A stretch of DNA of 64,000 nucleotides, from contig NZ_JBCFBO010000001.1 in the NCBI RefSeq assembly GCF_038562635.1, forward strand, positions 1,736,192 to 1,800,191, given 5' to 3'. Within the stretch, counting starts at the first letter, position 1, and each line of letters begins with the position of its first letter. The DNA is from Methanobacterium sp. GTDB taxonomy: Archaea; Methanobacteriota; Methanobacteria; Methanobacteriales; Methanobacteriaceae. The notes below the pieces were generated by a model. It was not told the DNA's origin and made no database searches. It worked only from the letters and a program-made list of their open reading frames with translations. Shown one piece after another: positions 677 to 63,405 of this stretch. The position numbers and the translations under genes were made by a program.

Positions 677-758
677 TTTTTTATAATGAAAATAAGAAAT
701 TTTCATATGTTAAAAAATTGGGAATTTTTTACAATGAAAATAAGAAATTTTCATATGT
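677..758. repeat. 34-nt direct repeat x2 (period 48 bp); each copy holds one A/T-tract mini-hairpin
   Basis: TTTTTTA[T/C]AATGAAAATAAGAAATTTTCATATGT occurs at 677-710 and 725-758 with 1 mismatch. Each copy contains ATGAAAAT-aagaa-ATTTTCAT (e.g. 686-706). It lies in the divergent purE / glycosyltransferase intergenic region. Confidence 0.9.
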
Positions 759-832
759 GAGAAAGTAAATAGGTATTTCAGATATTTCAATATAACTCGC
801 ATTATTTATAAAATTTGATGTAAATATCAACA

Positions 833-2569
833 TTGGAAATTGAGGTGTACATTTTGTCATGGCTTATCCTACTTTTCGTCTTACTAGTGGCATCCATCAA
901 AAACAGAGGTTCAGAAACAAAAATGACAGTATCTATCGTAATTCCGGCTTATAATGAATCTAAAACTATAGAAAAAGTGATCGGTGTTATAAATAGTTTA
1001 GATTGTGTCAATGAAATAATTGTCGTCGATGACGGATCTTCAGATGATACCTCAAGTATTGCGCAAAAAGCAGGAGCAACAGTTATACTCCACTCTAAAA
1101 ACAAAGGAAAAGGTGCAGCTATAAAAACTGGTTTTGAAAATTCAAATGGGGATGTTGTCGCCTTCATTGATGCAGATTTGAAAAATTTAACCGCAAGACA
1201 AGTGGAAAAAATCATCGAACCCATATTAGATGGAAAAGCAGACGTGACCAAAACAAAATTCAAACGAAAAGCAGGAAGAGTGACAGAATTAACCGCCAAA
1301 CCACTTTTAAATTTCTTTTTCCCAGAATTAAAATATGATCAGCCTTTAAGTGGACAATTTGCAGCGAAAAAAAGTTTCTTAAGTAAGATAAAGTTTGAAG
1401 AAGATTATGGGGTAGACATTGGAATCGTGCTGGACGCTGATGTTAGGGGAATGAGGATAAAAGAAGTAGACATAGGTGAAATTGAACACGTACATTCATC
1501 CATTGAAGGCCTGAATAAAATGGCCAATGAAGTTGTAAGGACTATTGTAGACCGTGCGATGTCATACGGTAGGTTTTCCATGATGGATGACTTGGGAAAA
1601 AACATAAGAATGGCCATTTTAGGACTTTCACTTATAACTTTAGGGCTTTTCTCCATATTTTTCGTTAACAAAATTCCAATGGATATAGGACTAGTAATTC
1701 TAGTATCCGGGCTAATAATTGCCATTTATTATGGCGTACTTCTCGTAAAAAGGACAGCAAATATTCTTTCAAAATCCAGTGGAAGACTCCCCACATTAAA
1801 GTCATTATTTTATATGCACTTTCCGATTCTTATTTCCGGATTAATACTATTAACTATGATATCCACATTTGTAGGATATGTAAGCATAGATGATGGGACA
1901 ATATCAATACAGCCAGCTTCAGGAAATCTCGTGCTAATAGGTCCTAATGGTTTACAATTAGAATCAAGAGGACCTTATACAGTAGATAGCGCCCTTGAGA
2001 ATGAGTATAGCATATTCAGGGTTCCATCCAGCGCTATGAAAACATTAGGCTTGAACTATGGAGATTCCATATATATATTTAACAAAAAATACACTACACG
2101 TCCAACTATACAGGGAGAAGACAATATATTAAGAATGCCAAGAGATGCACGAACATATCTCGGAGTGGACACAAGAACTGTCATATTAGATAGTAATCTC
2201 CGAAATATCTTCAATAATATATATATTGAAAGATCCCTACCAGTACAGGGAAATATTAGCGACATATCCATTATTGAAGGAGCTATAATTAAATCAGATT
2301 ATCAAAACGGCAGAATAGTAAATATATACGTTGATAACCAGAAGGTTGCAACAACATCAGGAGTCCTCAAAGATGGGACTTACAGCATCTACATTAACAA
2401 CATGAAGGATCGTACCATTTACGTCAATAATAACGATGCTAAAGATAATACTACTCTTTACTGGGGCAATCATACCATAAAAATAGAAATTGGAGGACAA
2501 GTTAATTCTAATTTCGAATTTGCAACATCAGATCGAGGCAAATTTTTAAATATATTCTTAAGTAAATGA
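833..2569 (+). CDS. Family 2 glycosyltransferase (dolichyl-phosphate sugar synthase-like) fused to a TM region and a large C-terminal non-cytoplasmic domain
   Basis: MTVSIVIPAYNESKTIEKVI...VVDDGSSDDT...FIDADL are GT-A/GT2 motifs. They are followed by about 4 hydrophobic helices and a C-terminal domain of about 230 aa. The TTG start at 833 adds an N-terminal TM helix; an alternative ATG lies at 923 (AGAGGT upstream). Confidence 0.75.
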   Translation: MEIEVYILSWLILLFVLLVASIKNRGSETKMTVSIVIPAYNESKTIEKVIGVINSLDCVNEIIVVDDGSSDDTSSIAQKAGATVILHSKNKGKGAAIKTGFENSNGDVVAFIDADLKNLTARQVEKIIEPILDGKADVTKTKFKRKAGRVTELTAKPLLNFFFPELKYDQPLSGQFAAKKSFLSKIKFEEDYGVDIGIVLDADVRGMRIKEVDIGEIEHVHSSIEGLNKMANEVVRTIVDRAMSYGRFSMMDDLGKNIRMAILGLSLITLGLFSIFFVNKIPMDIGLVILVSGLIIAIYYGVLLVKRTANILSKSSGRLPTLKSLFYMHFPILISGLILLTMISTFVGYVSIDDGTISIQPASGNLVLIGPNGLQLESRGPYTVDSALENEYSIFRVPSSAMKTLGLNYGDSIYIFNKKYTTRPTIQGEDNILRMPRDARTYLGVDTRTVILDSNLRNIFNNIYIERSLPVQGNISDISIIEGAIIKSDYQNGRIVNIYVDNQKVATTSGVLKDGTYSIYINNMKDRTIYVNNNDAKDNTTLYWGNHTIKIEIGGQVNSNFEFATSDRGKFLNIFLSK

Positions 2570-2597
2570 GTTTAGAATCTCATTTACCTTTAAAAAA

Positions 2598-3530
2598 TCA
2601 ATAATAAACTTTTACGGCTTCTTCTATATCATTGTAAAGTCCTAATGCTGCAAGAGCCCCTATTTTACCATGAGAACCTGTAACTTCAATAAGTTCTATT
2701 CCAAGTTCTTTTGCAGTTTTTTCAGCCTCTTCAAGGGACATCATGGACTGTTTAGTTGCCATTGAATATTCTCTCAGCTTTTCAGGAATTTTAATGCCAT
2801 CTAAAATTGCCATTGAAGTCTTTTGAGATAGGGTACTTTCTTTAAATAGTTCTCGTGCTTCTTCAATTAATTTATCTCGTTCACCGGGTTTAACAGCGAA
2901 AACAAGTGCTATAGCAACGCAATTTTGAGTTTTATTTGGATTGTGAGGATATAACTGCACAATAACATGATTTATATATTCAAATCCCCTTTTACTTAGT
3001 TCAACTCCGACGTTATTAGCTAAAGTCCATGTGGCCCCTTTTTCCTTAGTATCAGTGTCATCAATTCCAATTACAACTTTTTGAAGTTTAGGAGTTACAA
3101 CAGCAGCCCTTCCAACCTTTGAACCACCACCAATATCGTAAAGTTCAACTCTTTTAACCCCTTTTGCCATTCCCCGGCACATTGCAGCCCCAACTCCTGC
3201 TCCAGCCAGACCTGCATGAGTTACTTTTACTTCATCCCCTTCAACAGATACTTCTTCGATCCCTGCAGCAGAAAAACTTGGTTTAAGATTTAAATCGGTT
3301 TTTCCAACGTCTACAAGATATGTATGTTTGTTTCCATCTCTTTCTGCACTTTTTACCAGATCACTTGACCTTTCATATTGATAGACCATCCATTGTGAGC
3401 CCCCAATACAGGGATGATATTCAACAATTTCTACCATATCATCGTCAACCATGGTTAAAATCTTTTTATATGGGGCTACCCATGGGTCTTTAAATCTCTC
3501 TTTTAAGTCGTCAGGGGTTACTATTTCCAT
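2598..3530 (-). CDS. Conserved archaeal protein with a TiaS-N-terminal/DUF1743-like IGIDDTD motif; resembles the methanogen-specific 'methanogenesis marker protein 11' family
   Basis: 310 aa, containing VVIGIDDTDTKEKGATW and a Gly-rich loop HAGLAGAGVGAAMCRG. The family name is from memory and cannot be verified here. Confidence 0.4.
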   Translation of the reverse strand: MEIVTPDDLKERFKDPWVAPYKKILTMVDDDMVEIVEYHPCIGGSQWMVYQYERSSDLVKSAERDGNKHTYLVDVGKTDLNLKPSFSAAGIEEVSVEGDEVKVTHAGLAGAGVGAAMCRGMAKGVKRVELYDIGGGSKVGRAAVVTPKLQKVVIGIDDTDTKEKGATWTLANNVGVELSKRGFEYINHVIVQLYPHNPNKTQNCVAIALVFAVKPGERDKLIEEARELFKESTLSQKTSMAILDGIKIPEKLREYSMATKQSMMSLEEAEKTAKELGIELIEVTGSHGKIGALAALGLYNDIEEAVKVYY

Positions 3531-3903
3531 TTAATAATCACCTAATATTGTAATTAATTAGTTCTGATTGGTTCATAGTTAAATTAATTATAAATAACAA
3601 TTTACAGGAAAATTTGCTGATTCTTGTTGTGTCCTGCAAAATTGTTTAATAATCAATGTGTACTGTTTTGAATTTACTGCTATGTAATATATTAATTTTG
3701 GATTTTCAAATTGATCATGTGTCATGCAACTTAAAGTGTTGTTATTTTAAATGATTATGTTGCTTTGAAAGCACGTTAACGCATTATATTGTATAAAATC
3801 ATCCAAAAAGAGTATTTATGACCATGTTATAAAAAAATGTTGCAAAATAATGATATTTAGACTTAAAAATAATTCATTAAAATTATTAAAATAAAGAGAA
3901 AGA

Positions 3904-4426: not shown

Positions 4427-4513
4427 TTATATTGCACTTAATACAGCAATTGCAACAACCCATACCACCATTATTACAATTATAAATATTGCTATGGCTC
4501 TTGTTCTATCCAT
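4427..4513 (-). CDS. Candidate 28-aa single-pass membrane micropeptide
   Basis: Below the ORF-track cut-off. GGAGGTTAAAAT precedes the ATG at 4513. Translation is MDRTRAIAIFIIVIMVVWVVAIAVLSAI*, a basic N-terminus followed by one hydrophobic helix. There is no homology evidence. Confidence 0.35.
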   Translation of the reverse strand: MDRTRAIAIFIIVIMVVWVVAIAVLSAI

Positions 4514-4523
4514 ATTTTAACCT

Positions 4524-4733
4524 CCAAAAAATTTTATTTTTTGGGCCCTCGAAATCCTCAAAAATCGATGAATTTCGATTTTTGGGAGTTAGAAAAATGC
4601 AAGGCATTTTTCTAAAATTCAGAGAATTTCGGGGCATGTGAAAATCACAGATTTTCACGGTTGCAAAACTGAAAGTTTTGCAAACATCAAAACGAAGTTT
4701 TGAATGTTTCGGAAAATTCAAAATGAATTTTCC
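4524..4733. repeat. A/T-tract mini-hairpin array (about 8 hairpins)
   Basis: Members include CCAAAAAA-tttta-TTTTTTGG (4524-4544), AGAAAAATGC-aag-GCATTTTTCT (4591-4613), GTGAAAAT-cacag-ATTTTCAC (4638-4658), GCAAAACT-gaa-AGTTTTGC (4663-4681) and GGAAAATTC-aaaat-GAATTTTCC (4711-4733). The array abuts the stop codon (4734-4736) of the cysteine desulfurase gene. Confidence 0.9.
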
Positions 4734-5942
4734 TCAAACTCCTGCGAATTTAGATATTTCTTCAACAGTTTCTGTTAATATATCAATCTCTTCTTTAGTA
4801 TTATAATAATGAACCGATGCTCTAACAGTTCCACCAAGTTTATCCGCACCTATATGTTTTATTGCAGGAATTGCGCAGTGATAACCGCTCCTTACACATA
4901 TATCTTTAAGTTCATCCAGTATTTTAGCAACATCATGAGAATTCATACTTTCCACATTGAAAGCAACTATTCCATGAATATTATCTGGATTACCATAACA
5001 TATTGTATTATCTATGCTATTAATCGCGTCAAACATATATTTTGTAAGTTTTGCGCTGTGTTTTTCAATATTCTCAATTCCAACATTTTCCACATAATTT
5101 ATAGCCGCTCCAAGACCAATGACACCAGCTATATTTTGAGTGCCTCCCTCAAATCTACCTGGAGCAGATTCAAGCGTAAAATCATCTTCTGTAACCTTTG
5201 ATACTGTTCCACCGCCGAGATTAACTGGTTTTAATTTATCCATAACATCGCTTTTGGAATATAAAAATCCAGTCCCAACAGGACCAAAAAGACCTTTATG
5301 TCCTGGAAATGAAACAAAATCTGCCTTTGTTTCTTTTACATCAAATTTTACATGTCCTGCAGATTGTGCGGCGTCAACAAGATATAAAATATCGTTTTCT
5401 TCTGCTATATCCCCAATATCATAGATAGGCTGGCATGAACCAATTGAATTTGAGATATGAGTAGTCGTGATGAGCTTTGTAGTATCATCTACAGCTTTTT
5501 CAATATCCCCAATGTCTATTACGCCATATTTATCTGTTTTTATGACTTTAAGATTAACTCCTGCTTTTTTCAAATTGAGCCATGGCAGAAAATTAGAATG
5601 GTGTTCTATATTGGGAACAATTATTGAATCACCCTTCTTAAATTCCAGGCTGTTTGCTACAAGATTTATAGCTTCAGTGGTGTTTTTTGTAAATATAACC
5701 TCATTTCTATTACAGTTTATAAATTTTGCAATTCTTTCCCTTGTATTTTCAAATTTCATTGTTGCTTTAACTGCTGTTTTATAGGCACCCCTTCCTATAT
5801 TAGCATTGAAATTATGAAAATAATCGCACATTGCATTTACTACAGGCTCTGGAGTTGGAGTAGTGCTTGCAGCGTCCAAATAGATTACTTCATTAAGTAA
5901 AGGAATATCCGATCTGATATCAATATTTTGAGTATTTTCCAT
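4734..5942 (-). CDS. Cysteine desulfurase (class V aminotransferase, SufS/CsdA-like)
   Basis: 402 aa with YLDAASTTP, the PLP-Lys region SFPGHKGLFGP, and a C-terminal active-site loop RSGYHCA. Confidence 0.85.
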   Translation of the reverse strand: MENTQNIDIRSDIPLLNEVIYLDAASTTPTPEPVVNAMCDYFHNFNANIGRGAYKTAVKATMKFENTRERIAKFINCNRNEVIFTKNTTEAINLVANSLEFKKGDSIIVPNIEHHSNFLPWLNLKKAGVNLKVIKTDKYGVIDIGDIEKAVDDTTKLITTTHISNSIGSCQPIYDIGDIAEENDILYLVDAAQSAGHVKFDVKETKADFVSFPGHKGLFGPVGTGFLYSKSDVMDKLKPVNLGGGTVSKVTEDDFTLESAPGRFEGGTQNIAGVIGLGAAINYVENVGIENIEKHSAKLTKYMFDAINSIDNTICYGNPDNIHGIVAFNVESMNSHDVAKILDELKDICVRSGYHCAIPAIKHIGADKLGGTVRASVHYYNTKEEIDILTETVEEISKFAGV

Positions 5943-5997: not shown

Positions 5998-6987
5998 TTA
6001 TTTTTCCTCTATTTTTCTTCTAATTTCACTGGCCATTTCCATGGTAGATGCATTTCCACCAATATCCCCAGTTACAACTTTACCTTCACTTAAAACTTCA
6101 ACCAGTGCATTTTCAACTGTACGGGCTGCACCATGTTCTTTAAGGTAATCAAGCATCATTACTGCAGATAATATCATTGCAGAAGGATTTGCAATATTTT
6201 TTCCAGCAATATCTGGCGCGGATCCGTGCACTGGTTCAAATAAACCACTATTTTCTCCGATATTAGCAGATGGTATTAAACCAAGACCACCAACAAGTCC
6301 TGCACCCTCATCTGAAAGTATATCTCCAAATAAATTTGTAGTAACGATCACATTAAACATTTGAGGGTTTGTAATGAAAAACATTGCTGTTGCATCAACA
6401 TAACGATCATCGGTTTCAATATCTTTATAATCTTCAGCAACTTTGTAAAAAATGTCTTTAAATAATCCATCTGTTTTTTTAAGTACATTTGCCTTGTGAA
6501 CTGCTGTAACTTTATTTCTGCCATTTTCTTCAGCATAATCAAATGCAAACTTGCAAATTCTTTCTACAGCATTTCTTGTGGTAACTCTTAAAGCAGTGGC
6601 TCCCTCTTCTGTTTCTTCTTCAAGCCCAATATAGAGATCTTCTGTGTTTTCCCTAACAATTACAAAATCTAAATTGTCAAACAAAGCTTTAGTGCCAGGG
6701 TATGATTTAACAGGCCTTAAATTAACGTAAAGCTCAAGTTCCTGTCTTAATCTGACAATAACATCCGCTGCTGATTCTCCAGCAGCACCAAACAGACATG
6801 CCTGCGATTCTTTTACTATATCAATTGTTTCTTCAGGTAAAGGAACTCCTGAGACTGCTTTGCATTCATCTCCTGCGTCTGCAAATGTGTAATCAAATTC
6901 AACTTCAAGTGCATCTAAAACATGTAATGCTGCTTCCATAACTTCTTTTCCGATACCGTCTCCAGGTACCACCGCTATTTTGTACAT
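5998..6987 (-). CDS. 3-isopropylmalate / homoisocitrate dehydrogenase family (LeuB or AksF)
   Basis: 329 aa with MYKIAVVPGDGIGKEV, NLFGDILSDEGAGLVGGLGL and HGSAPDIAGK. LeuB and AksF cannot be told apart by eye. Confidence 0.85.
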   Translation of the reverse strand: MYKIAVVPGDGIGKEVMEAALHVLDALEVEFDYTFADAGDECKAVSGVPLPEETIDIVKESQACLFGAAGESAADVIVRLRQELELYVNLRPVKSYPGTKALFDNLDFVIVRENTEDLYIGLEEETEEGATALRVTTRNAVERICKFAFDYAEENGRNKVTAVHKANVLKKTDGLFKDIFYKVAEDYKDIETDDRYVDATAMFFITNPQMFNVIVTTNLFGDILSDEGAGLVGGLGLIPSANIGENSGLFEPVHGSAPDIAGKNIANPSAMILSAVMMLDYLKEHGAARTVENALVEVLSEGKVVTGDIGGNASTMEMASEIRRKIEEK

Positions 6988-7129: not shown

Positions 7130-7645
7130 ATATTCAATGTATTTTCGTCTTCAAACTTACAAACATCGTAATTTGGACTGTAACCATCGTTTTTTCAGAT
7201 TATATTGATTAGTACATCTTAAATAAGTTTGATCAAAGAATATTCATTTTTATGTTAAAATTGATTGTTTATAGAACTTTAAATTACAAATTTCCTGTTG
7301 TAAAAATCACAACGGGGCCTTTTGAACATATACCCATTGTAAACTTCAATAAATCCACATACATACAAATATAAGAACCAATTTTAACTACAATTTTCCC
7401 CAGAACCACATAATCCATATCAAAGAGCACTTGATGACATAAAATCGTGCCCACCCCTAAAAATTAATAATTCATTGATATTTAACAAATCTATGTATTA
7501 TATGCCCATTCATAGCCTTATCAAGCGAGTCTGCAGGTATTTGATGATCAAAAATGATCATAATTTTCTCAGGATCCCAGACTCTAGGAACCTTAATTTC
7601 ATAAAAAAATTCGGCACATAAATTTTCAGTAATATTACAGGTCAT
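7130..7645 (-). pseudogene. Decayed aconitase-family large-subunit gene (leuC/hacA-like remnant)
   Basis: My translation of 7645-7472 gives MTCNITENLCAEFFYEIKVPRVWDPEKIMIIFDHQIPADSLDKAMNGHIIHRFVKYQ*, which matches the ...NPEKIVILFDHQVPADS...RKFVKEQ region of methanogen LeuC/HacA. After a frameshift the sequence continues GVGTILCHQVL..GKIVVKIGSYICMYVD (Fe-S ligand region degenerate), then TTGNL*FKVL*TINFNI (compare ATGKLWFKVPETIYFNI) with in-frame stops. The lower boundary is uncertain. Confidence 0.7.
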
Positions 7646-10401: not shown

Positions 10402-10455
10402 CAAAAAATCTATTCAGATTTTTTGGGCGCTTGAAAAATGTTATACATTTTTCAA
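10402..10455. repeat. A/T-tract mini-hairpin pair
   Basis: CAAAAAATC-tattca-GATTTTTTG (10402-10425) and TTGAAAAATG-ttata-CATTTTTCAA (10431-10455), located between rpa and radA. Confidence 0.85.
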
Positions 10456-17381: not shown

Positions 17382-17816
17382 TTAGAGGTAAGACTTTACG
17401 TACCTGGATTTTTCATCTCTTATTTTATCCAGTATATACTTTTCATTATCCTCATTTATTATTTCTTTGGCCTTAGGAAAAATTTCTTTTTCTTCTTCAT
17501 CGATATGAAGCTCTATAATCTCTTGAAGTACTCCCATTTTAGGCATCCATCGTTCGTCGCTTTTATCCAGTTTATCTAATTCATAGATCAATTTTTTGCC
17601 AAGTTCATGTTCCTCATATCTTTCAAGGACCATGAATGATTCTTTTTTCCTGAGTGCTGGATAAAAATATATCTCTTCTCCCAGCATATGGGATTCCCAT
17701 TCTTTTTGGATTTTAGGAAATTGTGAAGGGTCCTTATTTTGTATAGTTTCCCTCAAAAGATTCTTTATATTATCATGGTCATTCTTTAGTAATTCATAAA
17801 CATTATTTTCTGCCAT
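17382..17816 (-). CDS. Hemerythrin-like (HHE cation-binding) domain protein
   Basis: 144 aa with LKNDHDNIKNLL, HMLGEEIYFYP and HIDEEEKEIFP. Confidence 0.65.
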   Translation of the reverse strand: MAENNVYELLKNDHDNIKNLLRETIQNKDPSQFPKIQKEWESHMLGEEIYFYPALRKKESFMVLERYEEHELGKKLIYELDKLDKSDERWMPKMGVLQEIIELHIDEEEKEIFPKAKEIINEDNEKYILDKIRDEKSRYVKSYL

Positions 17817-18127
17817 TTAATCACCTTCTCAAAATCTTTGATTTTTTGTGGTCCCAAAACCTACGATTTTTCATAGCTTTGATTTAATTTAAGGGAACTT
17901 TTTTCTAAATTTTTATACATTAATAGATCTGAACTTTAGTAGTAATATTTTTTACTTAATTATTAGTAACATTTTTAAAGTATGCTATTCAAAAGTATAG
18001 CTCAAACACAGTTACAAAATTAAAATCATATATAATCAATTATTTTAATCAATAAACGTTTTTTTTAATGGCTAATTTAAAGTTATCTTATCTTATGAGA
18101 TAACACTATAAAAGAGAGGTGATAATT

Positions 18128-21107: not shown

Positions 21108-21898
21108 ATGGACTACAATGAACTTGGAAATAAATTAAAGGAAATCTTGAAATTAAAAAATGATCCAGTTGCCATAAAATGGTCTGTAAAAGAACCAAGA
21201 GATATTGAAAAGGAAGAAGGTAAATCTAGATTTTCTACCAAACTTACGAAAATCGTAGATTTTCGTGCCAACGAAACCATCGGTTTCGTGGCCCCAAACC
21301 TTTGCATTTGAGGGCTCCAAAAATTCTATGAATTTTTGAGAGCTAGACAAAGCTATGCACGGCGAAACTTTCTATGCAACTGCTGAAGAAGAGGAATGTA
21401 TGGGTGGTGCAAGATATTCGGGACTTAAAGACCCAAAGGAATTCCCTGCAAACATGCAAAGTGGTGCATTTTTAGTTCCAATGGGAGTTTACAAGAATAT
21501 ACCTGCAGTTCAACGTTCGTGGAAAAATAATTTGAATGTAGAATGCGGGATTTTTAACGCCGTTATCTTTGCCCCCCCCCCCTTGTAAATGCAGAATTTG
21601 AACTGACGTGATATTTGTAGTCTGCAATGCAAAACAGGGGATGGAAATACTCCATGCAAATGCGTATGATTCGGGTGCACATGGCTTAGGTGCTGATTCA
21701 GGACCAATATGCAGCTCAATGGCCGCAGTTCCTTATATGACTGGAAAGGTCACCTACGGTTTTGGAGATGTGGGTTCCAGACAGCATATGGATATTAACC
21801 CAGAAGATATTATGGTTGCTATTCCTGCAAGTGAATTTTCCCGTATAATATCCAACTTAGAAGAAATGAGAACCAAAAAATTCTTTAAGGAAAGGTGA
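21108..21898 (+). pseudogene. DUF169 family gene, disrupted by a 100-nt hairpin-array insertion and two frameshifts
   Basis: Three consecutive ORF fragments (21108-21311, 21355-21588, 21608-21898) together read as one DUF169-like protein: ...KSRFST / ELDKAMHGETFYATAEEEECMGGARYSGL...VIFAP / LVNAEFE / DVIFVVCNAKQGMEILHANAYDSG... Confidence 0.8.
21240..21339. mobile_element. 100-nt A/T-tract mini-hairpin array inserted in the DUF169 coding sequence (MITE-like behaviour)
   Basis: CGAAAATC-gta-GATTTTCG (21247-21265), ACGAAACC-atc-GGTTTCGT (21271-21289) and CAAAAATTC-tat-GAATTTTTG (21318-21338). Deleting 21240-21339 restores the reading frame between fragments 1 and 2. Boundaries are good to within a few nt. 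Confidence 0.6.
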
Positions 21899-22220: not shown

Positions 22221-23540
22221 ATGTTTAAAGATGAAAAATGTACTCCCGATGTCAAAAACGGAGGACAATTAATGTACGAAAATCAAAAATATGCTCTTAA
22301 AATCAAAGAAGTTACTAAAGAACATCATAGATGGATGGAAAATAGTATAAACTTAATTGCAAGTGAAAATATAACCAGTATAGACGTAAGGGAAGCTCTA
22401 GCATCAGACCTATCCCACAGATATGCGGAAGGTTTACCATGTGAAAGGCTCTATGAAGGCTGTGAATACATAGACATAATTGAAAACTTAACAATTGACC
22501 TATCCAAAAAACTGTTTAATGCTGAACATGCTAATGTACAGCCAAATTCAGGGGTCGTTGCAAACTTAGCCTCATTTTTTGCCCTTACAAATTATAATGA
22601 CCTCCTTATGGCATTAAATGTGCCTGTAGGTGGCCATATAAGCCATGCAGAAGTCAGTGCAGCCGGAATAAGGGGTTTAAGAATCAAATCACACCCATTC
22701 AACAGCGAAACAATGAACATCGATGCCGATGCTATGAAAAAAGAAATTATAAAAAACAAGCCCAAAATGGTTCTTCTTGGCGGTAGTTTATTCTTATTCC
22801 CTCACCCTGTAGAAGATGCACGTGAAGCAGCAGACGAAGTAGGTGCAAAAGTTATGTACGACGGAGCACATGTACTCGGTCTTATAGCTGGTGGCCAATT
22901 CCAGGACCCTCTTAAAGAAGGAGCTGATATTCTTGCTGGAAGTACCCACAAGACCTTCCCCGGTCCTCAAGGTGGTATGATCCTCTGCAAAGAAGACATA
23001 AAAGATAAAATAGACACAGCTGTATTCCCTGGAGTTGTAAGTAACCATCACCTTCACCATGTAGCTGCATTAGGTATTAGTTTAGCAGAAATGCTTGAGT
23101 TCGGTGAAGATTATGCAAAACAGATAATTAAAAACGCTAAAGCTCTTGCACAGAGCCTTTATGAACTTGGCTTTGATGTTCTCTGTGAAGACCTAGGATT
23201 TACAGAATCTCACCAGGTAGCTATGGATGTTAAGAAAGTAGGCAGTGCAGCTAAAATGGCAAAAGACATGGAAGCTAACAACATCATCCTTAACAAGAAC
23301 TTACTCCCATGGGACGACCGTAAACGGACCGATGATCCATCCGGCATAAGGGTTGGTACACAGGAAATAACCCGCCGTGGATTAAAAGAAGCTCAAATGG
23401 AAGAAGTTGCAGAGTTCATCAAAAAAGTAGCCATGGAAGGTAAAGACGTTAAAGCGGAAGTTACAGAGTTCATGAACCAGTACAACACTGTACACTACTG
23501 TTTCAGAGAAGATTTAGCTTATAAATACATTGATTTCTAA
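22221..23540 (+). CDS. glyA: Serine hydroxymethyltransferase
   Basis: 439 aa with LIASENITS and the PLP-Lys motif [18 protein letters not shown] precedes both the ATG at 22221 and the alternative ATG at 22272. Confidence 0.9.
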
Positions 23541-23570
23541 TTCAACTACTCCCCAAATCTTTTATTTTTC

Positions 23571-23858
23571 GGCGCGCCAAACACGAAGTGTTTGAGGGCT
23601 TTTTTCATAAAAAAAGCCGTCAAAAAATCTTCGATTTTTTGGGCCGCGAATCGAAGATTCGCCGGGATTGATCAAAAAAATCCCTCGAAAATCTTAGCTT
23701 GCAAAATTTTTAATTTTGCAGCCCCAAAATTCTACGAATTTTGAGGGATTTTCGGGGCATGTGAAAATTTTCAATTTTCACGGTTGCGAAATTTCATTTC
23801 GCAAACATCAAAAACCTTTGTTTTTTGAAGGCCTCGCGAAAAAACTCTGTTTTTTCGC
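23571..23858. repeat. A/T-tract mini-hairpin array (about 11 hairpins)
   Basis: Examples are CAAAAAATC-ttc-GATTTTTTG, GCGAATC-gaa-GATTCGC, GCAAAATT-ttt-AATTTTGC (23701-23719), GTGAAAAT-tttca-ATTTTCAC (23761-23781), GCGAAAT-ttc-ATTTCGC (23786-23802) and GCGAAAAAAC-tct-GTTTTTTCGC (23836-23858). Confidence 0.9.
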
Positions 23859-24090
23859 TGCGGTAGAAAGAAATCAACTATTTATTCCCTTTTTTAATAT
23901 TTCATTAATTAAAAACAATCAAAATTAGAAATCAATATCTTTCTATTTTTTTAACTTTTCAATACTATTTCTATCAATTTTAAAGGCGAAATCAAATTCT
24001 CGATTATCTATCTAATTTTATAAATACCACTTTTCTCATATATTGAACAAATTAAAGTTTACAATTTTAATACATTTACGAGGAGATTGA

Positions 24091-24783: not shown

Positions 24784-25049
24784 ACAGAAAGTAAAAATAA
24801 TAAGTCCACTAAACCTTTATTTTTCCTACAGGATTTAATAAAGAACCATTCAGATTAAAAATATTAATTTTTATTACATTTCTTTTCCAAATATTACAAC
24901 ATATGGAACGCTCACACCCCGAATGTTGTGCAAACAATATCGCTTCATTTTCGTGTGTCACTGTTAATTAAATTGCATTTTTTTAAGATAAATCCCCTAT
25001 AATCAATTAAACTACAATTTAACATAAAGTATAACTAATGCACAGGATC

Positions 25050-25200
25050 ATGGACATGTAAAAATCGCAATTTTTACGGTCACCAAAACCTTCGAAAACT
25101 GTTAAATCTTCGATTTGACGTATCGAAAATTGTAAATTTTCGAATGCTTTGTTTTCGAGGTTCCAAAAATCTCCGATTTTTGAAGACTGTCGGTTTTTGT
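25050..25200. repeat. A/T-tract mini-hairpin array (about 5 hairpins)
   Basis: GTAAAAAT-cgca-ATTTTTAC (25058-25077), CGAAAATT-gta-AATTTTCG and CAAAAATC-tcc-GATTTTTG (25164-25182). Confidence 0.85.
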
Positions 25201-25237
25201 GAACATGAGCGTTAGAAACTTTTAAGAGGGTATCAAT

Positions 25238-25816
25238 ATGGCAGATCAAAACCATCTGGAAAAGTATCGTGAAAAAAGAGATTTTGAAAACACTCCTGAA
25301 CCATTTACAAGTGAAAAAGTTTCAGATAAGCCAAGATTTGTAGTACAAAAACATGATGCAAGTAAACTCCATTATGATTTCAGGTTGGAAGTTAACGGTG
25401 TTTTAAAGTCCTGGGCAATTCCCAAGGGACCTTCTACAGATCCCAGTCAAAAAAGGCTTGCAGTCCCAACAGAAGACCATCCCTTGGACTATATTGATTT
25501 TGAGGGAGTTATTCCTGAGGGAAACTACGGCGCAGGCACTGTAATTGTCTGGGACACTGGCACTTATCACAACTTAAATGAAAAAAATGGCCACAAAATC
25601 AATATGGAAGAATCTATCAACAAGGGACACGTGGATATCTGGCTTGAAGGCCATAAACTTAAAGGGGGCTATGCCCTTATACGTACAGGAAAAGGAAACC
25701 GGAAATTCTGGCTTCTTTTGAAAAAGAAAGATGAAAAAGCAGATAAAAATAAAGACATCCTGATTGATCAGCCAGAATCTGTATTAAGCAGACGTACCAT
25801 CGATGAGATCATATGA
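25238..25816 (+). CDS. Stand-alone LigD-type 3'-phosphoesterase (PE) domain protein
   Basis: 192 aa with LEKYREKRDF..TPEP and FVVQKHDASKLHYDFRLE, the hallmark motif of the DNA ligase D phosphoesterase domain. Confidence 0.8.
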   Translation: MADQNHLEKYREKRDFENTPEPFTSEKVSDKPRFVVQKHDASKLHYDFRLEVNGVLKSWAIPKGPSTDPSQKRLAVPTEDHPLDYIDFEGVIPEGNYGAGTVIVWDTGTYHNLNEKNGHKINMEESINKGHVDIWLEGHKLKGGYALIRTGKGNRKFWLLLKKKDEKADKNKDILIDQPESVLSRRTIDEII

Positions 25817-34900: not shown

Positions 34901-35130
34901 TAAGAAGAGTTCAAGACATGCGAAAAGACCTTGACTTAGATGTTGAAGCCAATATTCAGGTATTTGTAGAGTGTGATGAAGGTTTCAAAGAATTAATTAA
35001 ACCATTCTTTGACTTTATTTCCAATGAGGTACGTGCTGAACAGCTGAGTTTTGAGGCACAGGAAGGAGATTATACAAAAGAGTGGAAGATTGAGGATGAA
35101 AACCTTAAAATAACTATCAAAAAAACATAA
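31984..35130 (+). CDS. ileS: Isoleucine--tRNA ligase
   Basis: 1048 aa with the HIGH-type motif [16 protein letters not shown] and the motif [15 protein letters not shown] lies upstream. Confidence 0.95.
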
Positions 35131-35159
35131 TAAAATATTAAAGTGTTTTTGATCAACCG

Positions 35160-35264
35160 CTCAAAAATTCGTAGAATTTTTGGCCCCCCGAAAATCCCTC
35201 AAAATTCGTAGAATTTTGGGGCATCGAAAATTTTTAATTTTCGAAAGCTATGATTTTCGAGGGC
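35160..35264. repeat. A/T-tract mini-hairpin array (about 4 hairpins)
   Basis: CAAAAATTC-gta-GAATTTTTG (35162-35182), CCCTCAAAATTC-gta-GAATTTTGGGG (35196-35221) and CGAAAATT-ttt-AATTTTCG (35225-35243). Confidence 0.9.
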
Positions 35265-35286
35265 TTTTTCCTAAAAATGTTGAAAG

Positions 35287-35338
35287 GTGGAAGATTGAGG
35301 ATGAAAACCTCAAAATAACAATTAAAAAAACACAATGA
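35287..35338 (+). repeat. Duplicate of the last 49 nt of ileS, retained as an in-frame tail
   Basis: 35082-35130 versus 35287-35335 differs at 4 of 49 positions. Three differences are synonymous third-position changes and the fourth turns the stop TAA into CAA. Copy B reads [18 protein letters not shown] possible third partial copy lies at 35345-35369. Confidence 0.8.
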
Positions 35339-35405
35339 GGTAACAAACCTCAAATAACTCTTAAAAATATACACTAATTAAATATATTAACTACAGCGTG
35401 ATATC

Positions 35406-43339: not shown

Positions 43340-43860
43340 CCTTAAAAACTGTTAAAATCCCTTAAAATCTGTGATTTTGGGGATCCTCAAACGCGAAGCA
43401 TTCAAAAATCTCTGATTTTTGATGCGTCAAAATTCTTATAATTTTGACAGCGTTTGGGACATGTGAAAACCTTTGGTTTTCACGGTTGCGGAACATTAAA
43501 AAATCTCCGATTTTTTATGCAACGAAAAATGCAAAGCATGCAAACACTTCGTGTTTGCTGTTACAAAATCGTAGATTTTGTAAACATTTTTCTCCTGCTT
43601 TGTTCTGCAAACATCGGAAATCTTGATTTCCAAATGTTCGAAAAATCTTTTTGATTTTCTCAACCTCAAAAAATTTTTTATTTTTTTGGGCCGTCGAACA
43701 CATGGTGTTCGGGCCCTACAAATCTTTGATTTGTGGCCAAGGAAACATAGTTTCCTACGGCTTAGAAATCAGAGCAGTCGAAAATTCATAGAATTTTCGT
43801 CGCGTCAAAATTTTCAATTTTGACAGATTTCGAAAGGTTCAAAAAATTCATAGAATTTTC
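43340..43860. repeat. Largest A/T-tract mini-hairpin array (about 18-20 hairpins, about 520 bp)
   Basis: TCAAAAATC-tct-GATTTTTGA (43402-43422), GTCAAAATT-cttat-AATTTTGAC (43426-43448), GTGAAAAC-ctttg-GTTTTCAC (43463-43483), GCAAACAC-ttc-GTGTTTGC (43540-43558), TACAAAATC-gta-GATTTTGTA (43562-43582), GGAAAC-ata-GTTTCC (43741-43755), CGAAAATTC-ata-GAATTTTCG (43779-43799) and GTCAAAAT-tttca-ATTTTGAC (43804-43824). Confidence 0.9.
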
Positions 43861-44152
43861 CTCAACTTTAGCGTTTGAAAGTTAATTCTTAATTTGTACT
43901 GTTTAAATATTTAGAGATATTGATTAGATGTGTTATCTAATATTAATAGTTTATACAAATCTGACAAACAGAAAGCAACTCCTTGTTTAATATTTGATAC
44001 TATCCAACTTTTTATTGCAATATTTAATCAAATAATAACTTTAAAAGTGGTAGCACAAAACATTAATAATAAAAAATACTTAAATTATCTTATTGTAAAA
44101 CACGTTCTTCAAGTGTATTTCTCCTTAATTAGATTTATAAAAACGTGGTAAA

Positions 44153-44884: not shown

Positions 44885-45298
44885 TTAAAATTGCTCCAAA
44901 TAATTTTCTACTATGGCATCAACTATACACGGCGCATTCCATCCTATGATATCTGCAGCAGCTTCTTCAAGCTCAGGAGGTACATTTTCCATACCGTAAG
45001 GCCTGATGACAATTATGGGCTTTTCTAATTTATTTGAAATGTCTATTTGCTTCTTTATAATATCTTTATACTTATTGTATAGCCCTGAAAGAATTATTAC
45101 AACTCCTACAGGCATTATCTGTTCTTGAAGCTCTTCTCCAGTGATCTTATCTTTTTCAAGTATCCCATAGTTTTTAAACTCAAAATCATGTGCTGCTGCC
45201 AATTTCTCAGTAAACGTGTTATATTCTTCCTCATTTTGACCTATATGGCTTATAAATATATTATATAATCTTGATTCTGATTCAAACATTTCATCCAC
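44885..45298 (-). CDS. TIR-like domain protein (DUF1863 / MTH538 / ThsB-like)
   Basis: 137 aa with YNIFISHIGQNEEEYNTFTEKL..FEFKNYG...VVIILSGLY...KPIIVIRPYG...IIGWN. This matches my memory of the MTH538-type TIR-like fold family. Confidence 0.5.
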   Translation of the reverse strand: MDEMFESESRLYNIFISHIGQNEEEYNTFTEKLAAAHDFEFKNYGILEKDKITGEELQEQIMPVGVVIILSGLYNKYKDIIKKQIDISNKLEKPIIVIRPYGMENVPPELEEAAADIIGWNAPCIVDAIVENYLEQF

Positions 45299-45476: not shown

Positions 45477-46106
45477 TTATACAATTAAATAATTATATCC
45501 ATAAGCTCTGTAAGGAACTGTTTTCCATTTTCCGTTTTGGTATAGTTGAACTGATCTGTGTCTGCTGGAATAACTTGTCGCGTATTGAATTACTCTTGAT
45601 TTGTAGCCTGCAGCTTTGAATTTATTGTTTAAATATGCACTGTATGCCCAACAATCACCTGCATGGTATTTAACTAAGCCAGAAGCAGTACTAACTCCAC
45701 TTCGGTAGCCGTATCCTGCAGCTGATTTCATAATTGAGTTTAATTTTGGGTCGCTGAATGTATCTGCTTTACCGCTTGAGGTATAAGATGAACTACTGGA
45801 ACTTGATGCTGCTTTAACTGTACTGGTTTTGTATTTATAATAATATTTCCAGGTATACTTCCAAGTGTACTTCCATGTATAGTACCATCTACCGTGGGAT
45901 TTATACCAATGTTTATACCAGTGTTTGTACCAGTGCTTATACCATACTTTAACTTTTACACTGGACGCTGCATTCACTTTCAAAACGTCTGTGTGTTCGT
46001 TTAGACCAATTTGAGCATTATCATCCGATGCACTTTGGTCCGATGCCCCCACCGCAGAGGGCAAAATGCTTATTGCCATAGCTATTGCTATTAGCAAAGC
46101 ATACAT
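45477..46106 (-). CDS. Secreted protein with a W/Y/K/H tandem-repeat segment and a transglutaminase-like Cys-His core
   Basis: 209 aa. Hydrophobic N-terminus ending AVGA; (WYKH)x3-WYKS and (KYTW)x3 at aa 55-93; a poly-Ser linker; C-terminal YHAGDCWAYSAYLNNKFKAAGYKSRV...RHRSVQLY resembling a transglutaminase core. Confidence 0.5.
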   Translation of the reverse strand: MYALLIAIAMAISILPSAVGASDQSASDDNAQIGLNEHTDVLKVNAASSVKVKVWYKHWYKHWYKHWYKSHGRWYYTWKYTWKYTWKYYYKYKTSTVKAASSSSSSSYTSSGKADTFSDPKLNSIMKSAAGYGYRSGVSTASGLVKYHAGDCWAYSAYLNNKFKAAGYKSRVIQYATSYSSRHRSVQLYQNGKWKTVPYRAYGYNYLIV

Positions 46107-56508: not shown

Positions 56509-57117
56509 TTAAACTTTTGAAACCTTTTTCAAATGTATCTTATGACCATATCCTTTTTGTTCTTTACTGATTCTATACCTGTAACCTGTAGCCTCTTCAA
56601 GTGCCATTGCTGAAGTATTGGTATAAGGACATGTTGTTATTAAGACTCCTTGTTTTTCAAGCTGCTTACACAATCCAAAGAAACGGCAATTTTTTATTTC
56701 AAGTTCGGCTTCTCCATCCCTAACCTCATATTCCATATCTCTTGCAAATTTATGTTTAATGAAATATTCTTTTACAGATTGAAAAGCAGATTCTCCATTT
56801 GTAAACTCAACACCGTCTTTTTTCAATTCATTGGTAAACGTACGGCCTATTTCTCTAGTTACAGAGTAAGATCCCCTCCCAGATATTGTCCAGAGGCCGT
56901 GTGTTAAAGCCAGTATCATAAGAGCCATTGGACCTTCCCCTTCGGATCCTATCTTTTCATCTTCAAGGGGGAAAAACTGATCCTTTTCTATACCGCATAT
57001 TGGGCAAACCCAGTCTGCAGGAAGATCTTTTAAATCGGTACCTGCTTCAATTCCATTTTCAGGGTCTCCACTACTTGAATCGTAAATATAACTGCATATA
57101 TCACACTTGTATCTCAT
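56509..57117 (-). CDS. Rubredoxin domain fused to a Cys-containing C-terminal domain of about 140 aa (possibly V4R-like)
   Basis: MRYKCDICSYIYD...DWVCPICG is a rubredoxin. The C-terminal ...LEIKNCRFFGLCKQLEKQGVLITTCPY... only loosely resembles V4R. The track start at 57129 is an alternative. Confidence 0.6.
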   Translation of the reverse strand: MRYKCDICSYIYDSSSGDPENGIEAGTDLKDLPADWVCPICGIEKDQFFPLEDEKIGSEGEGPMALMILALTHGLWTISGRGSYSVTREIGRTFTNELKKDGVEFTNGESAFQSVKEYFIKHKFARDMEYEVRDGEAELEIKNCRFFGLCKQLEKQGVLITTCPYTNTSAMALEEATGYRYRISKEQKGYGHKIHLKKVSKV

Positions 57118-57452
57118 TTTATCATCCAATTAACTTTTTTTACCATGATTAAGATTTTTAAGCTTTAGAAAATTTTTATATATCGTTTGGCTTTACCCGA
57201 ACTATTTATATATTATACACAAATAATGCATATAAATGTTGCTATCTAACTTAAAACCGTAATTAAAAGCAGCTAAAGAGTAATACAGAGAAGATAATCT
57301 AAAAATCCATAAAAACATAAATTATAGCCTCAAATCAAATAATAATCTACTAATTACAGAATATGCTTAATAAAACATTCCCAACAATAAAAAAAAAGTA
57401 GACCCTTGAAAATTGTATATTTTCAAGGGCGTGAAATGAGAACTTTACTCAT

Positions 57453-62647: not shown

Positions 62648-62675
62648 AGCTTGCAAAAACTATGTTTTTGCAGCT
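62648..62675. repeat. Solitary A/T-tract mini-hairpin
   Basis: AGCT-t-GCAAAAAC-tat-GTTTTTGC-AGCT, downstream of the small rubredoxin gene. Coordinates are good to +/-1. Confidence 0.7.
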
Positions 62676-62771
62676 ATTTAAAATAGTTAAGAAAATTCCC
62701 CAATATTAAAAAAAACAAGTAATTTTTAGTGAATTATAAAAAAATCAGGTTTTGAAATTTCCGTGGAGCCA

Positions 62772-63005
62772 TTATTTCTTTAATTCTTGAATGAATATAC
62801 TGCTTATTAAAGACATAATTCGGCCATTTTCATGATAATTTAGTTTTTTATTTTCCAGAGGGTAAAAATAATTTTTTTCTATGCCGCATACAGGGCAAAC
62901 CCAATCTGATGGAAGATCCTCTAAATCAGTCCCTGTTTCAATTCCATTTTCAGGATCTCCATTAGCTGGATCGTAAATATAACTGCATACATCACATTTA
63001 TACAT
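62772..63005 (-). CDS. Rubredoxin with a short non-homologous tail (paralog of the N-terminus of 56509-57117)
   Basis: [54 protein letters not shown] followed by a 23-aa tail. Confidence 0.8.
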
Positions 63006-63029
63006 TTATATCACCCGAATAAGGAGGGA

Positions 63030-63405
63030 ATGAGAGAATAAGACAGAAGCGGTAGTCTCATTTATTATTTCTCTCATGAATTTGAAATTGTGTAAGGAGA
63101 GATATAAACCCTCGAAAATCTTTCAAAATTTCGATTTAAAAGATTTTCTGGGCCCTCAAAATTCATAGAATTTTGAGCAACAAGGAACGGAGGCGGTATT
63201 GTCCTCATTAACATCTCTCCATAACTTTAATTATGTGATAGAGATTAAGTCTATGCAATATGCTCTTGATTTAATCTCTCAATGAATTAAGCAGCGGAGA
63301 GAACTTAGATGAAGGGTGGTAGGTTAATTATCGTACAGTATCTCTCCACAAAGTTAATTCAATTAAATAAGGGAGAGAAATAGGTGATCTTTAAGAATCT
63401 CTCCC
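63030..63405. repeat. Tandem array of five hairpins sharing a GGAGAGA/TCTCTCC stem
   Basis: U1 ATGAGAGAA(63030-38)/TTCTCTCAT(63069-77). U2 GGAGAGAT(63096-103)/ATCTCTCC(63213-220). U3 AGAGATTAA(63240-48)/TTAATCTCT(63271-79). U4 GGAGAGA(63296-302)/TCTCTCC(63341-47). U5 GGGAGAGA(63371-78)/TCTCTCCC(63398-405). The tails after each stem are similar (CATGAATTTGAAATTGTG, CATAACTTTAATTATGTG, CACAAAGTTAATTCAATT). Confidence 0.8.
63109..63178. mobile_element. A/T-tract mini-hairpin pair nested in the loop of unit U2 of the GGAGAGA array
   Basis: GAAAATCTT(63114-122)/AAGATTTTC(63140-148) and CTCAAAATTC-ata-GAATTTTGAG (63155-63177). U2's remaining loop (GGAACGGAGGCGGTATTGTCCTCATTA) is homologous to U1's loop (AGACAGAAGCGGTAGTCTCATTTATTA), so this 70-nt block looks inserted. 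Confidence 0.6.

Follow-up and report, generated by a model that had tools for sequence, protein, structure and literature searches.

Hairpin arrays in Methanobacterium: probable small mobile repeats of an undescribed family

Hairpin arrays in the window

The DNA analyzed here is a 64,000-nt stretch of Methanobacterium sp. (GCF_038562635.1, contig NZ_JBCFBO010000001.1, positions 1,736,192 to 1,800,191), referred to below as the window. An earlier note had described a window-wide family of A-tract/T-tract mini-hairpins packed into arrays, and on re-examination the hairpins stand where it placed them. The empty sites of relatives revised the locus bounds to 21243-21342, 23541-23868, 35158-35264, and approximately 43340-43865. 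The features are as follows:

4519-4733, unstranded: seven perfect hairpins in an array flanked by a possible 28-aa ORF and by the end of a minus-strand aminotransferase gene (stop codon TGA, 4734-4736)
10402-10455, unstranded: two adjoining hairpins in the spacer between an RPA-like gene and radA (covariance-model match, E=3e-4)
17829-17875, unstranded: degenerate array abutting the ribosome-binding site and start of a minus-strand hemerythrin gene (model E=0.02)
21243-21342, minus strand: discrete 100-nt element of four hairpins within a DUF169 gene, now a pseudogene
23541-23868, unstranded: 328-nt array of 10 hairpins directly after the glyA stop codon
25046-25215, unstranded: hairpin array within a 316-nt replacement (24915-25215), with a core unit at 25087-25165 (plus strand)
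35158-35264, plus strand: 107-nt element in which a left-end hairpin, CGCTCAAAAATTCgtaGAATTTTTGG, accompanies a core unit (35184-35266) with a three-way-junction fold
43340-43655, minus strand: first tandem element, in the divergent msrA/ABC-transporter spacer
43655-43865, minus strand: second of the tandem pair; its core unit, on the minus strand, spans 43756-43838
62652-62672, unstranded: solitary family-type hairpin TGCAAAAACtatGTTTTTGCA with a weak model score
63109-63178, minus strand: short intergenic element upstream of a small rubredoxin paralogue, with boundary right-end motif GATTTTCGAGGG and one perfect 10-bp hairpin

All covariance-model matches in the window with E<0.01 lie inside arrays. 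The locus at 677-758, formerly counted in the family, lies in a promoter region and consists of AT-only palindromes in a 48-nt tandem duplication; with a family-model score of only E=0.1, it is probably something of a different kind. The site listed as an array at 62648-62675 does hold a family-type hairpin, but a single one.

Perfect stems with 3-6 nt loops were counted in the window and in 30 dinucleotide-preserving shuffles of it. The window contains 92 stems of at least 7 bp (29.1±5.9 in the shuffles), 48 of at least 8 bp (7.9±2.7), and 35 of at least 9 bp (2.5±1.4). When clustering was defined as a stem of at least 8 bp with a neighbour within 60 nt, 35 clustered stems were found, compared with 0.4±0.9 in the shuffles. 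This is the kind of control that the earlier note had proposed, and both density and clustering far exceed it, which supports a single hairpin family well above chance. Together the arrays span 1,641 nt, making up 2.6% of the window and 12% of the part that is non-coding, and hold 43 hairpins with stems of at least 7 bp. Because their GC content is 35%, compared with 25% in the window's other intergenic DNA, they form a distinct sequence class. Across all retrieved DNA, 54 arrays were counted.

The building block is a perfect mini-hairpin consisting of a clamp, an A-tract, a 3-nt loop, a T-tract, and a second clamp. In a set of 253 array hairpins, drawn from related loci as well as the window, 176 have a 3-nt loop and 150 a C:G closing pair, and the 5' arm carries an A-tract in 152 and a T-tract in 11. 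Centre-to-centre spacing peaks at 24-28 nt. The hairpins are palindromic on both strands, with G·U pairs almost absent. An oligo-T run in every hairpin, as first described, is an overstatement; a tract of at least four A or T is present in about 60%.

Shared units, end motifs, and insertion pattern

Several loci share an approximately 80-nt core unit whose predicted fold is a three-way junction, with an outer stem enclosing two hairpins. This unit is about 90% identical over 70-97 nt across many loci. A covariance model found 45 copies (E<1e-6) in 788 kb of retrieved DNA, a number that makes the unit look commoner than it is because one of its hairpins served as bait for the metagenome loci. 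Compensatory changes occur in 22 of 27 pairs, a count that leans toward structure because the 45-copy alignment was fitted to the model. In 17 core units aligned by hand, 97% of cells are paired, four of the eight outer-stem pairs show compensatory changes, and one T·G is invariant. The 35158-35264 element is the top model match (99.5 bits), and its core unit terminates in GATTTTCGAGGGCT. The 23541-23868 array matches at 87 bits with a folding z-score of -10.2, and its core unit occupies 23679-23759 on the minus strand; further minus-strand units lie at 43380-43462 and 43518-43596 in the first tandem element. Matches in the 4519-4733 array fall at 4616-4694 and 4546-4637, and two metagenome contigs from the same strain carry that array unchanged.

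Sharing extends beyond the stems. Conserved non-palindromic linkers (GGGGCATG, CGGTTGC, and GCTATG) join the hairpins of recurring segments, as in the composite GGGGCATG-hairpin-CGGTTGC-hairpin-AACATC-hairpin at 4626-4712, and GGGGCATG composites are also found at 23749-23832 and 43451-43530. The 21243-21342 element is 88% identical over 95 nt to a segment inside an array of another species (L031; L-numbers are labels of the related loci used as comparators). The elements have recurring end motifs, left CGCTCAAAAATTC and right GATTTTCGAGGG, and vary in length through internal hairpin cassettes. The left motif stands exactly at the array boundary in seven loci and the right motif in six, with a variable 105-460 nt between them. 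Both tandem elements at 43340-43865 start with GTTGAG(G)AAAAT, read on the minus strand. One hairpin, CTCCAAAAATTCtatGAATTTTTGAGAG, is simple in the window and carries a two-hairpin cassette in its loop in L030, L031, and L051. Element orientation is independent of the flanking genes.

Presence and absence of the arrays was compared in related Methanobacteriaceae, as had been proposed; the main comparators share approximately 90% DNA identity with the window. The polymorphism is clean, affects at least six sites, and runs in both directions. Four window arrays (21243-21342, 23541-23868, 35158-35264, and 43340-43865) have clean empty sites in relatives. Conversely, L004 and L009 each carry an array after hdrA, and L007 carries one between convergent genes, where the window is empty; the L009 array is an event independent of that in L004. 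The 21243-21342 element is missing in L003-L007 with the flanking codons conserved, and in L003 the DUF169 ORF is uninterrupted (251 aa, matching DUF169), confirming the suspected insertion into a coding sequence. The 23541-23868 site is empty in L003-L007 and L023, and Methanobacterium sp. ACI-7 has a shorter array there with the same ends. At 35158-35264, L004 has an empty site consisting of the hairpin CAACATTTTTtctAAAAATGTTG, and L009 has a 298-nt version between the same ends. Approximately 525 nt at 43340-43865 are missing in L082, L083, L085, and L086, in which the msrA/ABC-transporter spacer measures 245-318 nt versus 840 nt in the window. This polymorphism supports the earlier suggestion that the hairpins spread. 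The array at 17829-17875 is old and occupies a place shared with relatives: L003 and L023 also carry hairpin elements there.

Insertion prefers spots in or beside existing hairpins and T-tracts, which are native sites that resemble terminators and directly follow stop codons; the loops of earlier family copies are favoured as well, and nested, back-to-back arrays are the result. The 23541-23868 array, for example, occupies the loop of the native hairpin GATTTCTaaaaAGAAATC. The 24915-25215 replacement separates the start of a LigD phosphoesterase gene from a conserved TATA-like box. No target-site duplication was found at four well-resolved junctions. A possible 5-nt repeat at the L004 junction is explained equally well by alignment ambiguity, and an ileS 3'-end duplication is older than the array. 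No conserved target sequence was found at the array sites, and insertion boundaries differ among the element sub-types.

Interpretation of the arrays

It is probable, in our view, that the arrays represent copies and accretions within a family of small mobile DNA elements, neither coding nor autonomous, in a group of Methanobacterium species. We found no description of such a hairpin family in the literature searched. Several observations count against this reading, among them the missing target duplication, the lack of a conserved target sequence, and the uneven insertion boundaries described above. None of the window's ORFs is a transposase or other mobilising gene, and all of them look housekeeping. 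No pair of copies more than approximately 93% identical was seen at different sites in the retrieved DNA, and for that reason recent copy-and-paste is inferred from empty sites rather than from twins. By inspection, the array-adjacent ORFs in the 788 kb include no autonomous insertion sequence with the same ends. Old, position-fixed arrays, as at 17829-17875, also exist.

The earlier note had suggested that the arrays act as bidirectional terminators or insulators. As an account of why they exist, selected by the host and kept to separate transcription units by facing polymerase with a T-run from either side, this seems doubtful. Archaeal RNA polymerase terminates at oligo-T, and with the A-then-T polarity (152 versus 11) the 3' arm carries a T-run whichever strand is read. 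Runs of T5 or more reach 15.8 per kb in the arrays, 2.4 times the 6.7 per kb of other intergenic DNA and equally on the two strands, and several arrays start right at a stop codon. As the main explanation, however, the proposal encounters close relatives that have the same gene ends without arrays, and in the window arrays occupy none of the eight convergent spacers and two of the seven divergent ones. One array lies within the DUF169 gene, and the two at 24915-25215 and 43340-43865 each separate a conserved TATA-like box from the start codon of an intact gene, a position in which a strong terminator would be harmful. A scan for bacterial-type terminators flags only one array hairpin, and the shared non-palindromic linkers, shared ends, and nesting are left unexplained. 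At most, acting as terminators or insulators would be a side effect: the many T-runs may dampen transcription across the arrays as a by-product, which would not be why the arrays exist.

Alternatively, the arrays could have been made in place by intra-strand template switching, fold-back priming, or end-joining with templated filler, without a dedicated element or enzyme. Such processes would suit the perfection of the hairpins (33 of 38 array hairpins), the core-unit stems of the hand alignment, in which changes affect both sides and seldom just one, the concentration of insertions at pre-existing hairpins, and the lack of target duplication. We nevertheless regard this origin as unlikely, given that 70-100 nt segments with the same linkers reappear both in other species and at unrelated loci, that defined end motifs recur at array boundaries, and that blocks of 100-525 nt were gained in one step relative to relatives.

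Somewhat more improbable is that the units are structured-RNA genes or cis-elements, such as a dispersed small-RNA family or stabilising UTR elements. The three-way junction covaries strongly, its conserved T·G would be a wobble pair on one strand only, and the right end often adjoins a T-run. Against these features stand the palindromy on both strands with almost no G·U, the mixed orientation relative to neighbouring genes, the back-to-back packing of units in both orientations without room for promoters, and their gain and loss between close relatives. Rfam 15 gave no window match at gathering thresholds, and at the permissive E<=1 only chance-level matches.

Binding-site arrays for a dimeric DNA-binding or chromatin protein, functioning on double-stranded DNA, are highly improbable: a half-site-like consensus, AAAAT(C/T)-N3-(G/A)ATTTT, does recur with regular spacing of approximately 25 bp, but there is no candidate protein, the long-range outer stems covary as well, and stem sequences vary freely while pairing is kept, which fits a folded strand rather than a fixed recognition sequence.

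If the arrays are copies of a mobile family, movement may proceed through folded single-stranded DNA, with a hairpin-specific enzyme supplied in trans that would recognise the folded strand. Candidates would include an IS200/IS605-type Y1 HUH transposase or a domesticated RAYT-like relative.

Comparison with known systems

Like the arrays, archaeal oligo-T intrinsic terminators place T5-T7 runs immediately behind genes, on both strands, but in the arrays the T-runs lie inside stems, and relatives can do without the arrays, which are also found in 5' leaders and in one coding sequence. Integron attC sites, single long imperfect palindromes whose RYYYAAC and GTTRRRY ends pair and which flank gene cassettes near an integrase, were considered and rejected: TTCAAC or CTCAAC is present at some boundaries, but the opposite ends mismatch, and cassette ORFs and an integrase are lacking in the window. 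BOX elements of the bacterium Streptococcus pneumoniae are intergenic and consist of boxA, a variable number of boxB, and boxC. They share with the arrays a modular plan in which conserved ends enclose hairpin-forming internal modules that vary in number, but their sequence is unrelated, and their modules, of 45-59 nt, are not nested. Like the arrays, BOX elements have no known mobilising enzyme.

IS200/IS605 elements and their gene-less derivatives (PATEs) likewise lack target duplication and have subterminal hairpins at both ends; a single-stranded DNA route is plausible, and the transposase family exists in Archaea. Unlike them, the arrays have many hairpins rather than two and no tnpA or tnpB nearby, and their flanks (ATCAAC, TTAACT, ACTATT, ACTAAA, TACTCA, and TATTTT) show no fixed 4-5 nt target at the left end. 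Prokaryotic MITEs, including those of Sulfolobus and haloarchaea, are similarly non-coding, multi-copy elements of 100-500 nt with insertion polymorphism, gene disruption, and stable folded structures. The present elements differ in lacking target-site duplications and a known parent insertion sequence, and in their highly variable length, which results from the hairpin cassettes. The likeness to MITE ends is partial and the inversion loose: the left end CGCTCAAAAATTC is similar to the reverse complement of the right end (CCCTCGAAAATC), the match is short and imperfect, and other sub-types differ. A MITE review lists none for Methanobacteria (PMC10969869).

The REP/BIME system of Proteobacteria (REPINs, with RAYT/TnpA-REP), to which the arrays were first compared, is the best available analogy. 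The present host is an archaeon, and its hairpins are shorter (17-25 nt), AT-rich, of A-then-T polarity, and far more variable in sequence; the conserved unit is a three-way junction and not a REP doublet. The clamp bases vary without the GTAG/CGTC foot tag of REP, GTA being a loop sequence here, and no RAYT-like (Y1 HUH) gene is present among the window ORFs. In Archaea, only the ordinary IS200-type subclass of Y1 transposases has been reported, and no REP-associated class (PMC6006769). The two systems nonetheless share dense, clustered, short extragenic palindromes in mosaic arrays, copies in both orientations, compensatory changes that keep the structure, a preference for sites after genes, and use as targets for further insertions; both are non-coding and presumably moved in trans. 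The arrays would best be read as an archaeal family of palindromic mobile elements, REP/BIME- or MITE-like and mobilised in trans.

Density and build of the hairpin arrays

The earlier note on this DNA had described intergenic clusters of back-to-back mini-hairpins, each built from a clamp, an A-tract, a loop, a T-tract and a second clamp, and reading those loci confirmed hairpins of that form. A scan for perfect stems with loops of 3-6 nt returned 92 stems of at least 7 bp in the window, most of them within the clusters already described. Hairpin density and clustering in the window were both far above those of 30 dinucleotide-preserving shuffles of the same DNA.

Perfect hairpin stems in the window, observed and in shuffles
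Stems of at least 7 bp: 92 observed, 29.1±5.9 in shuffles
Stems of at least 8 bp: 48 observed, 7.9±2.7 in shuffles
Stems of at least 9 bp: 35 observed, 2.5±1.4 in shuffles
Stems of at least 8 bp with a neighbor within 60 nt: 35 observed, 0.4±0.9 in shuffles

The arrays extend over 1,641 nt (2.6% of the window) and account for ~12% of the non-coding DNA in this stretch; their GC content is 35% versus 25% for the remaining intergenic DNA. Hairpin anatomy was summarized from 253 array hairpins of the window and related loci. Of these, 176 have a 3-nt loop and 150 a closing C:G pair, the commonest loops being GAA/TTC and GTA/TAC, and the 5' arm carries an A-tract in 152 and a T-tract in 11. C-GNA-G triloops are exceptionally stable in single-stranded DNA. 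Stems are perfect in 33 of the 38 hairpins of the window arrays; strand inference from G·T versus A·C mismatches was dropped because the five imperfect stems were too few.

Arrays are mosaics of 15-97 nt segments that recur between arrays, in either orientation, in the window and in other species. The hairpin CTCCAAAAATTCtatGAATTTTTGAGAG, for example, is simple in the window, and its loop is replaced by a two-hairpin cassette in three loci (L030, L031, and L051). A left boundary motif, CGCTCAAAAATTC, was found at seven loci and a right boundary motif, GATTTTCGAGGG, at six, mostly abutting a T-run, with 105-460 nt between the two. A second sub-type of array starts with GTTGAG(G)AAAAT and finishes with GGCC-CAAAAAATaaaATTTTTTGG-AGGTT.

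Positions 677-758 were rejected as a family member on the basis of AT-only palindromes, a 48-nt tandem duplication and a poor score against the family model. The tandem duplicates there are 93% identical, contain the palindromes ATGAAAATaagaaATTTTCAT (twice) and TAAAAAATTgggAATTTTTTA, and lie upstream of a glycosyltransferase gene; this stretch resembles an operator or promoter that has been duplicated and does not resemble the hairpin family. The spacer at 63090-63420 holds scattered short copies of CTCTCC/GGAGAG motifs that are unrelated to the A/T-tract hairpins. It lies upstream of a small rubredoxin-like ORF (62796-63002, minus strand) that shares 61% identity over 69 aa with the N-terminal region of a 206-aa rubredoxin-domain protein (56509-57129), and this paralogy accounts for the 158-nt DNA repeat shared by 56954-57111 and 62845-63002. 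Beside the array at 4519-4733, a possible 28-aa hydrophobic ORF (4427-4513, minus strand) has as its GGAGGT ribosome-binding site the last bases of the array. In the window and in two relatives (L003 and L023), a hairpin and GAGGTG are similarly arranged ahead of the hemerythrin gene (window position 17816).

Presence and absence of arrays among relatives

The window was compared by blastn with orthologous loci of relatives at ~90% DNA identity. Clean alignment gaps fell precisely at the arrays, bearing out the earlier proposal that the hairpins spread.

Array blocks of the window that differ between relatives
21243-21342: 100-nt block, absent in five relatives, with codons conserved on either side
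23541-23868: 328-nt block, beginning directly after the glyA stop codon
24915-25215: replacement, in place of ~33 nt separating a conserved TATA-like box from the start codon of the LigD-phosphoesterase gene
35158-35264: block, missing in the relative L004
43340-43865: block of ~525 nt, missing in four relatives

The site of the 21243-21342 block lies, in L003, within an intact 251-aa DUF169 gene, whereas in the window both the insertion and an additional frameshift disrupt the gene. The second frame break of this pseudogene (21108-21898) falls near 21588-21608 relative to the intact gene. A near-whole copy of the block (95 nt, 88% identity) occurs in the L031 array, inside the loop of a further hairpin. 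At 23541-23868, the empty site of six relatives is the hairpin GATTTCTaaaaAGAAATC, whose loop the window block occupies; Methanobacterium sp. ACI-7 has here a 75-nt array that begins and ends with the same bases and whose last hairpin carries a compensatory change. For 35158-35264, the empty site in L004 consists of the hairpin CAACATTTTTtctAAAAATGTTG, whose 5' arm is where the window block is inserted. The terminal 61 nt of ileS (35082-35142) are repeated with 85% identity at 35287-35347, downstream of the true gene end. A reading of this repeat as a long target duplication was rejected, since L004 has the duplication without the hairpin array between its copies; L007 lacks the duplication.

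Two blocks part promoters from genes. The ~525-nt block separates a conserved TATA-like box from the ribosome-binding site of an ABC-transporter gene, and the msrA/ABC spacer measures 840 nt in the window versus 245-318 nt in the four relatives. Beside msrA, a ThsB-like TIR domain protein (Thoeris defense domain) adjoins a 209-aa protein without a Pfam match (44885-45298 and 45477-46106, minus strand), and this pair is kept in two relatives (L083 and L085). Directly downstream of the 24915-25215 replacement is a stand-alone LigD 3'-phosphoesterase domain gene, an end-joining repair component (25238-25816).

The reverse was also observed. L004 and L009 carry independent arrays just 3' of an hdrA-like gene, in or beside a native hairpin (TAAGGAAattaTTCCTTA) with its T-tract, and the window is empty there. 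A spacer between convergent genes is filled by a 336-nt array in L007 and measures 30 nt in the window. The array at 17829-17875 is old, its position being common to L003 and L023. No convincing target duplication was found at any array junction examined, no fixed target sequence was seen at array ends, and no copies above ~93% identity were found at different sites in the fetched DNA.

The serine hydroxymethyltransferase of the window (22221-23540) is 99% identical in protein sequence to that of a Methanobacterium sp. MAG (UBA8) and 97% identical to that of MBAC-LM. All Pfam-matched ORFs of the window are ordinary cellular genes, and no transposase, RAYT, integrase, or HUH nuclease was found among its ORFs, nor any tRNA in the window. 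A CARDB-repeat surface protein gene (930 aa, 28511-31303) contains internal repeats of 357-360 nt and ~130-156 nt and has no counterpart in the L004 and L007 alignments. Metagenome contigs, scanned with one core hairpin as bait, yielded 55 loci, including many low-GC contigs with full arrays, and the ORFs adjoining arrays in these loci resemble housekeeping genes. L030 belongs to strain ACI-7 (hemL 100% identical), and L066 is identical to a locus of the UBA44 MAG. Array density varies widely among relatives. High-GC bait matches such as L060 were not counted as this family, being isolated hairpins of other organisms that lie behind tRNA-like sequence. On that 53% GC contig, which comes from an unrelated organism, the A/T-tract hairpin pairs GAGCTCAAAATCttcGATTTTGAGCT and GGAGTTTTGCgaaGCAAAACTCC (6515-6771 and 7293-7345) follow tRNA-gene-like ends and matched the bait pattern.

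A conserved core unit

The most widely shared array segment is a core unit of ~80 nt, in which an outer stem (e.g., CGAAAATC ... GATTTTCG) encloses two hairpins. Seventeen copies, chosen by hand, were aligned with MAFFT. Standard pairs fill 97.4% of pair cells, versus 64-72% when the partner is shifted by one column; four of the eight outer-stem pairs show both-sided changes, and one T·G is invariant. A covariance model built from this alignment and run over the window with filters off matched six full-length units.

Full-length core units matched by the covariance model
23679, minus strand
25087, plus strand
35184, plus strand
43380, minus strand
43518, minus strand
43756, minus strand

Weaker partial matches were also obtained, and all matches in the window at E<0.01 fall within arrays. 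In 788 kb of fetched DNA the model found 45 core units at E<1e-6, whose alignment, itself fitted to the model, has compensatory changes at 22 of 27 pairs. A second composite, GGGGCATG-hairpin-CGGTTGC-hairpin-AACATC-hairpin, has compensatory changes at 4/9 pairs and no one-sided variation. Core-unit orientation is independent of the direction of neighboring genes. A uniform strand bias was rejected: all four copies of the GGGGCATG composite lie on the plus strand and the core units are divided into two plus and four minus, so that a replication-strand bias cannot be claimed.

Origin of the arrays and comparison with known systems

The arrays fit a non-autonomous mobile element family better than any rival, because they come as one-step blocks with defined ends, the same blocks recur in other species and at sites unrelated to one another, a gene has been disrupted, insertions are nested in loops, orientation is free, and structure persists as sequence drifts. 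The suggestion in the earlier note that they could act as bidirectional terminators or insulators is not supported as the main explanation, and such activity is a possible side effect: it would account for the A-then-T polarity and T-run density of the arrays, but leaves unexplained their polymorphism between relatives, their occurrence in none of the eight convergent spacers of the window, and the insertions that separate promoter from start codon. A scan for bacterial-type terminators flagged only one array hairpin. Generation in place by template switching would explain the perfect stems but neither the shared non-palindromic linkers nor the shared ends, and so fits less well than a mobile family. 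An RNA role is unlikely given the mixed orientation, back-to-back packing and turnover of units. Known RNA families were ruled out, as the window had no Rfam match at gathering thresholds and permissive searches of the arrays gave only chance-level matches; a virus or plasmid origin was rejected as well, the bait hairpin having no viral-contig match and the 35150-35270 element none in a plasmid collection.

For a mobile family, strict Watson-Crick palindromy, triloops of a stable DNA type and the absence of target duplication lead us to infer an intermediate of folded single-stranded DNA and an enzyme specific for hairpins. We tentatively raise the possibility, which we consider somewhat improbable as a whole, that this is the first archaeal REP/BIME-like system. 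A hairpin-specific protein not recognized so far, possibly a domesticated archaeal Y1 HUH protein, would use single-stranded DNA to copy both the ~80-nt unit, a three-way junction with a strand-specific T·G, and its satellite mini-hairpins. Copies would enter hairpin loops and terminator sites, and the nested arrays built up in this way would reshape promoters, leaders, and gene ends. The array system is present in ACI-7, a cultured strain, so such a system, if real, would be experimentally tractable.

Small palindromic mobile repeats have been much studied in bacteria and scarcely in archaea. Since this family takes up ~12% of the window's non-coding DNA, differs sharply between species ~90% identical, separates promoters from their genes and is able to disrupt genes, it is a fast source of variation, both regulatory and structural, within a major methanogen group. 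The preference for hairpins and terminators, together with nested growth, offers a concrete lead to the responsible enzyme, and the covariance model of the core unit provides a means of annotating the family in genomes.

Full-text literature searches found no account of such arrays in Methanobacterium. In the literature searched, no REP-associated transposase class is reported for Archaea (PMC6006769), and a review of MITEs gives none for Methanobacteria (PMC10969869). The closest systems are REP/BIME arrays with their RAYT transposases, prokaryotic MITEs, gene-less IS200/IS605 derivatives, and the modular BOX elements of pneumococci. Integron attC sites were rejected because the array ends lack pairing and cassettes are absent. 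The REP/BIME likeness drawn in the earlier note is the best available, but the hairpin family departs from it in defining features, with neither a GTAG nor a CGTC tag and no RAYT gene among the ORFs of the window. Unlike MITEs, it shows no target duplication, and its ends form no clear terminal inverted repeats; unlike IS200/IS605 derivatives, it has no fixed target beside the left end. The BOX elements of pneumococci, with their modular build, are likewise among its closest counterparts.
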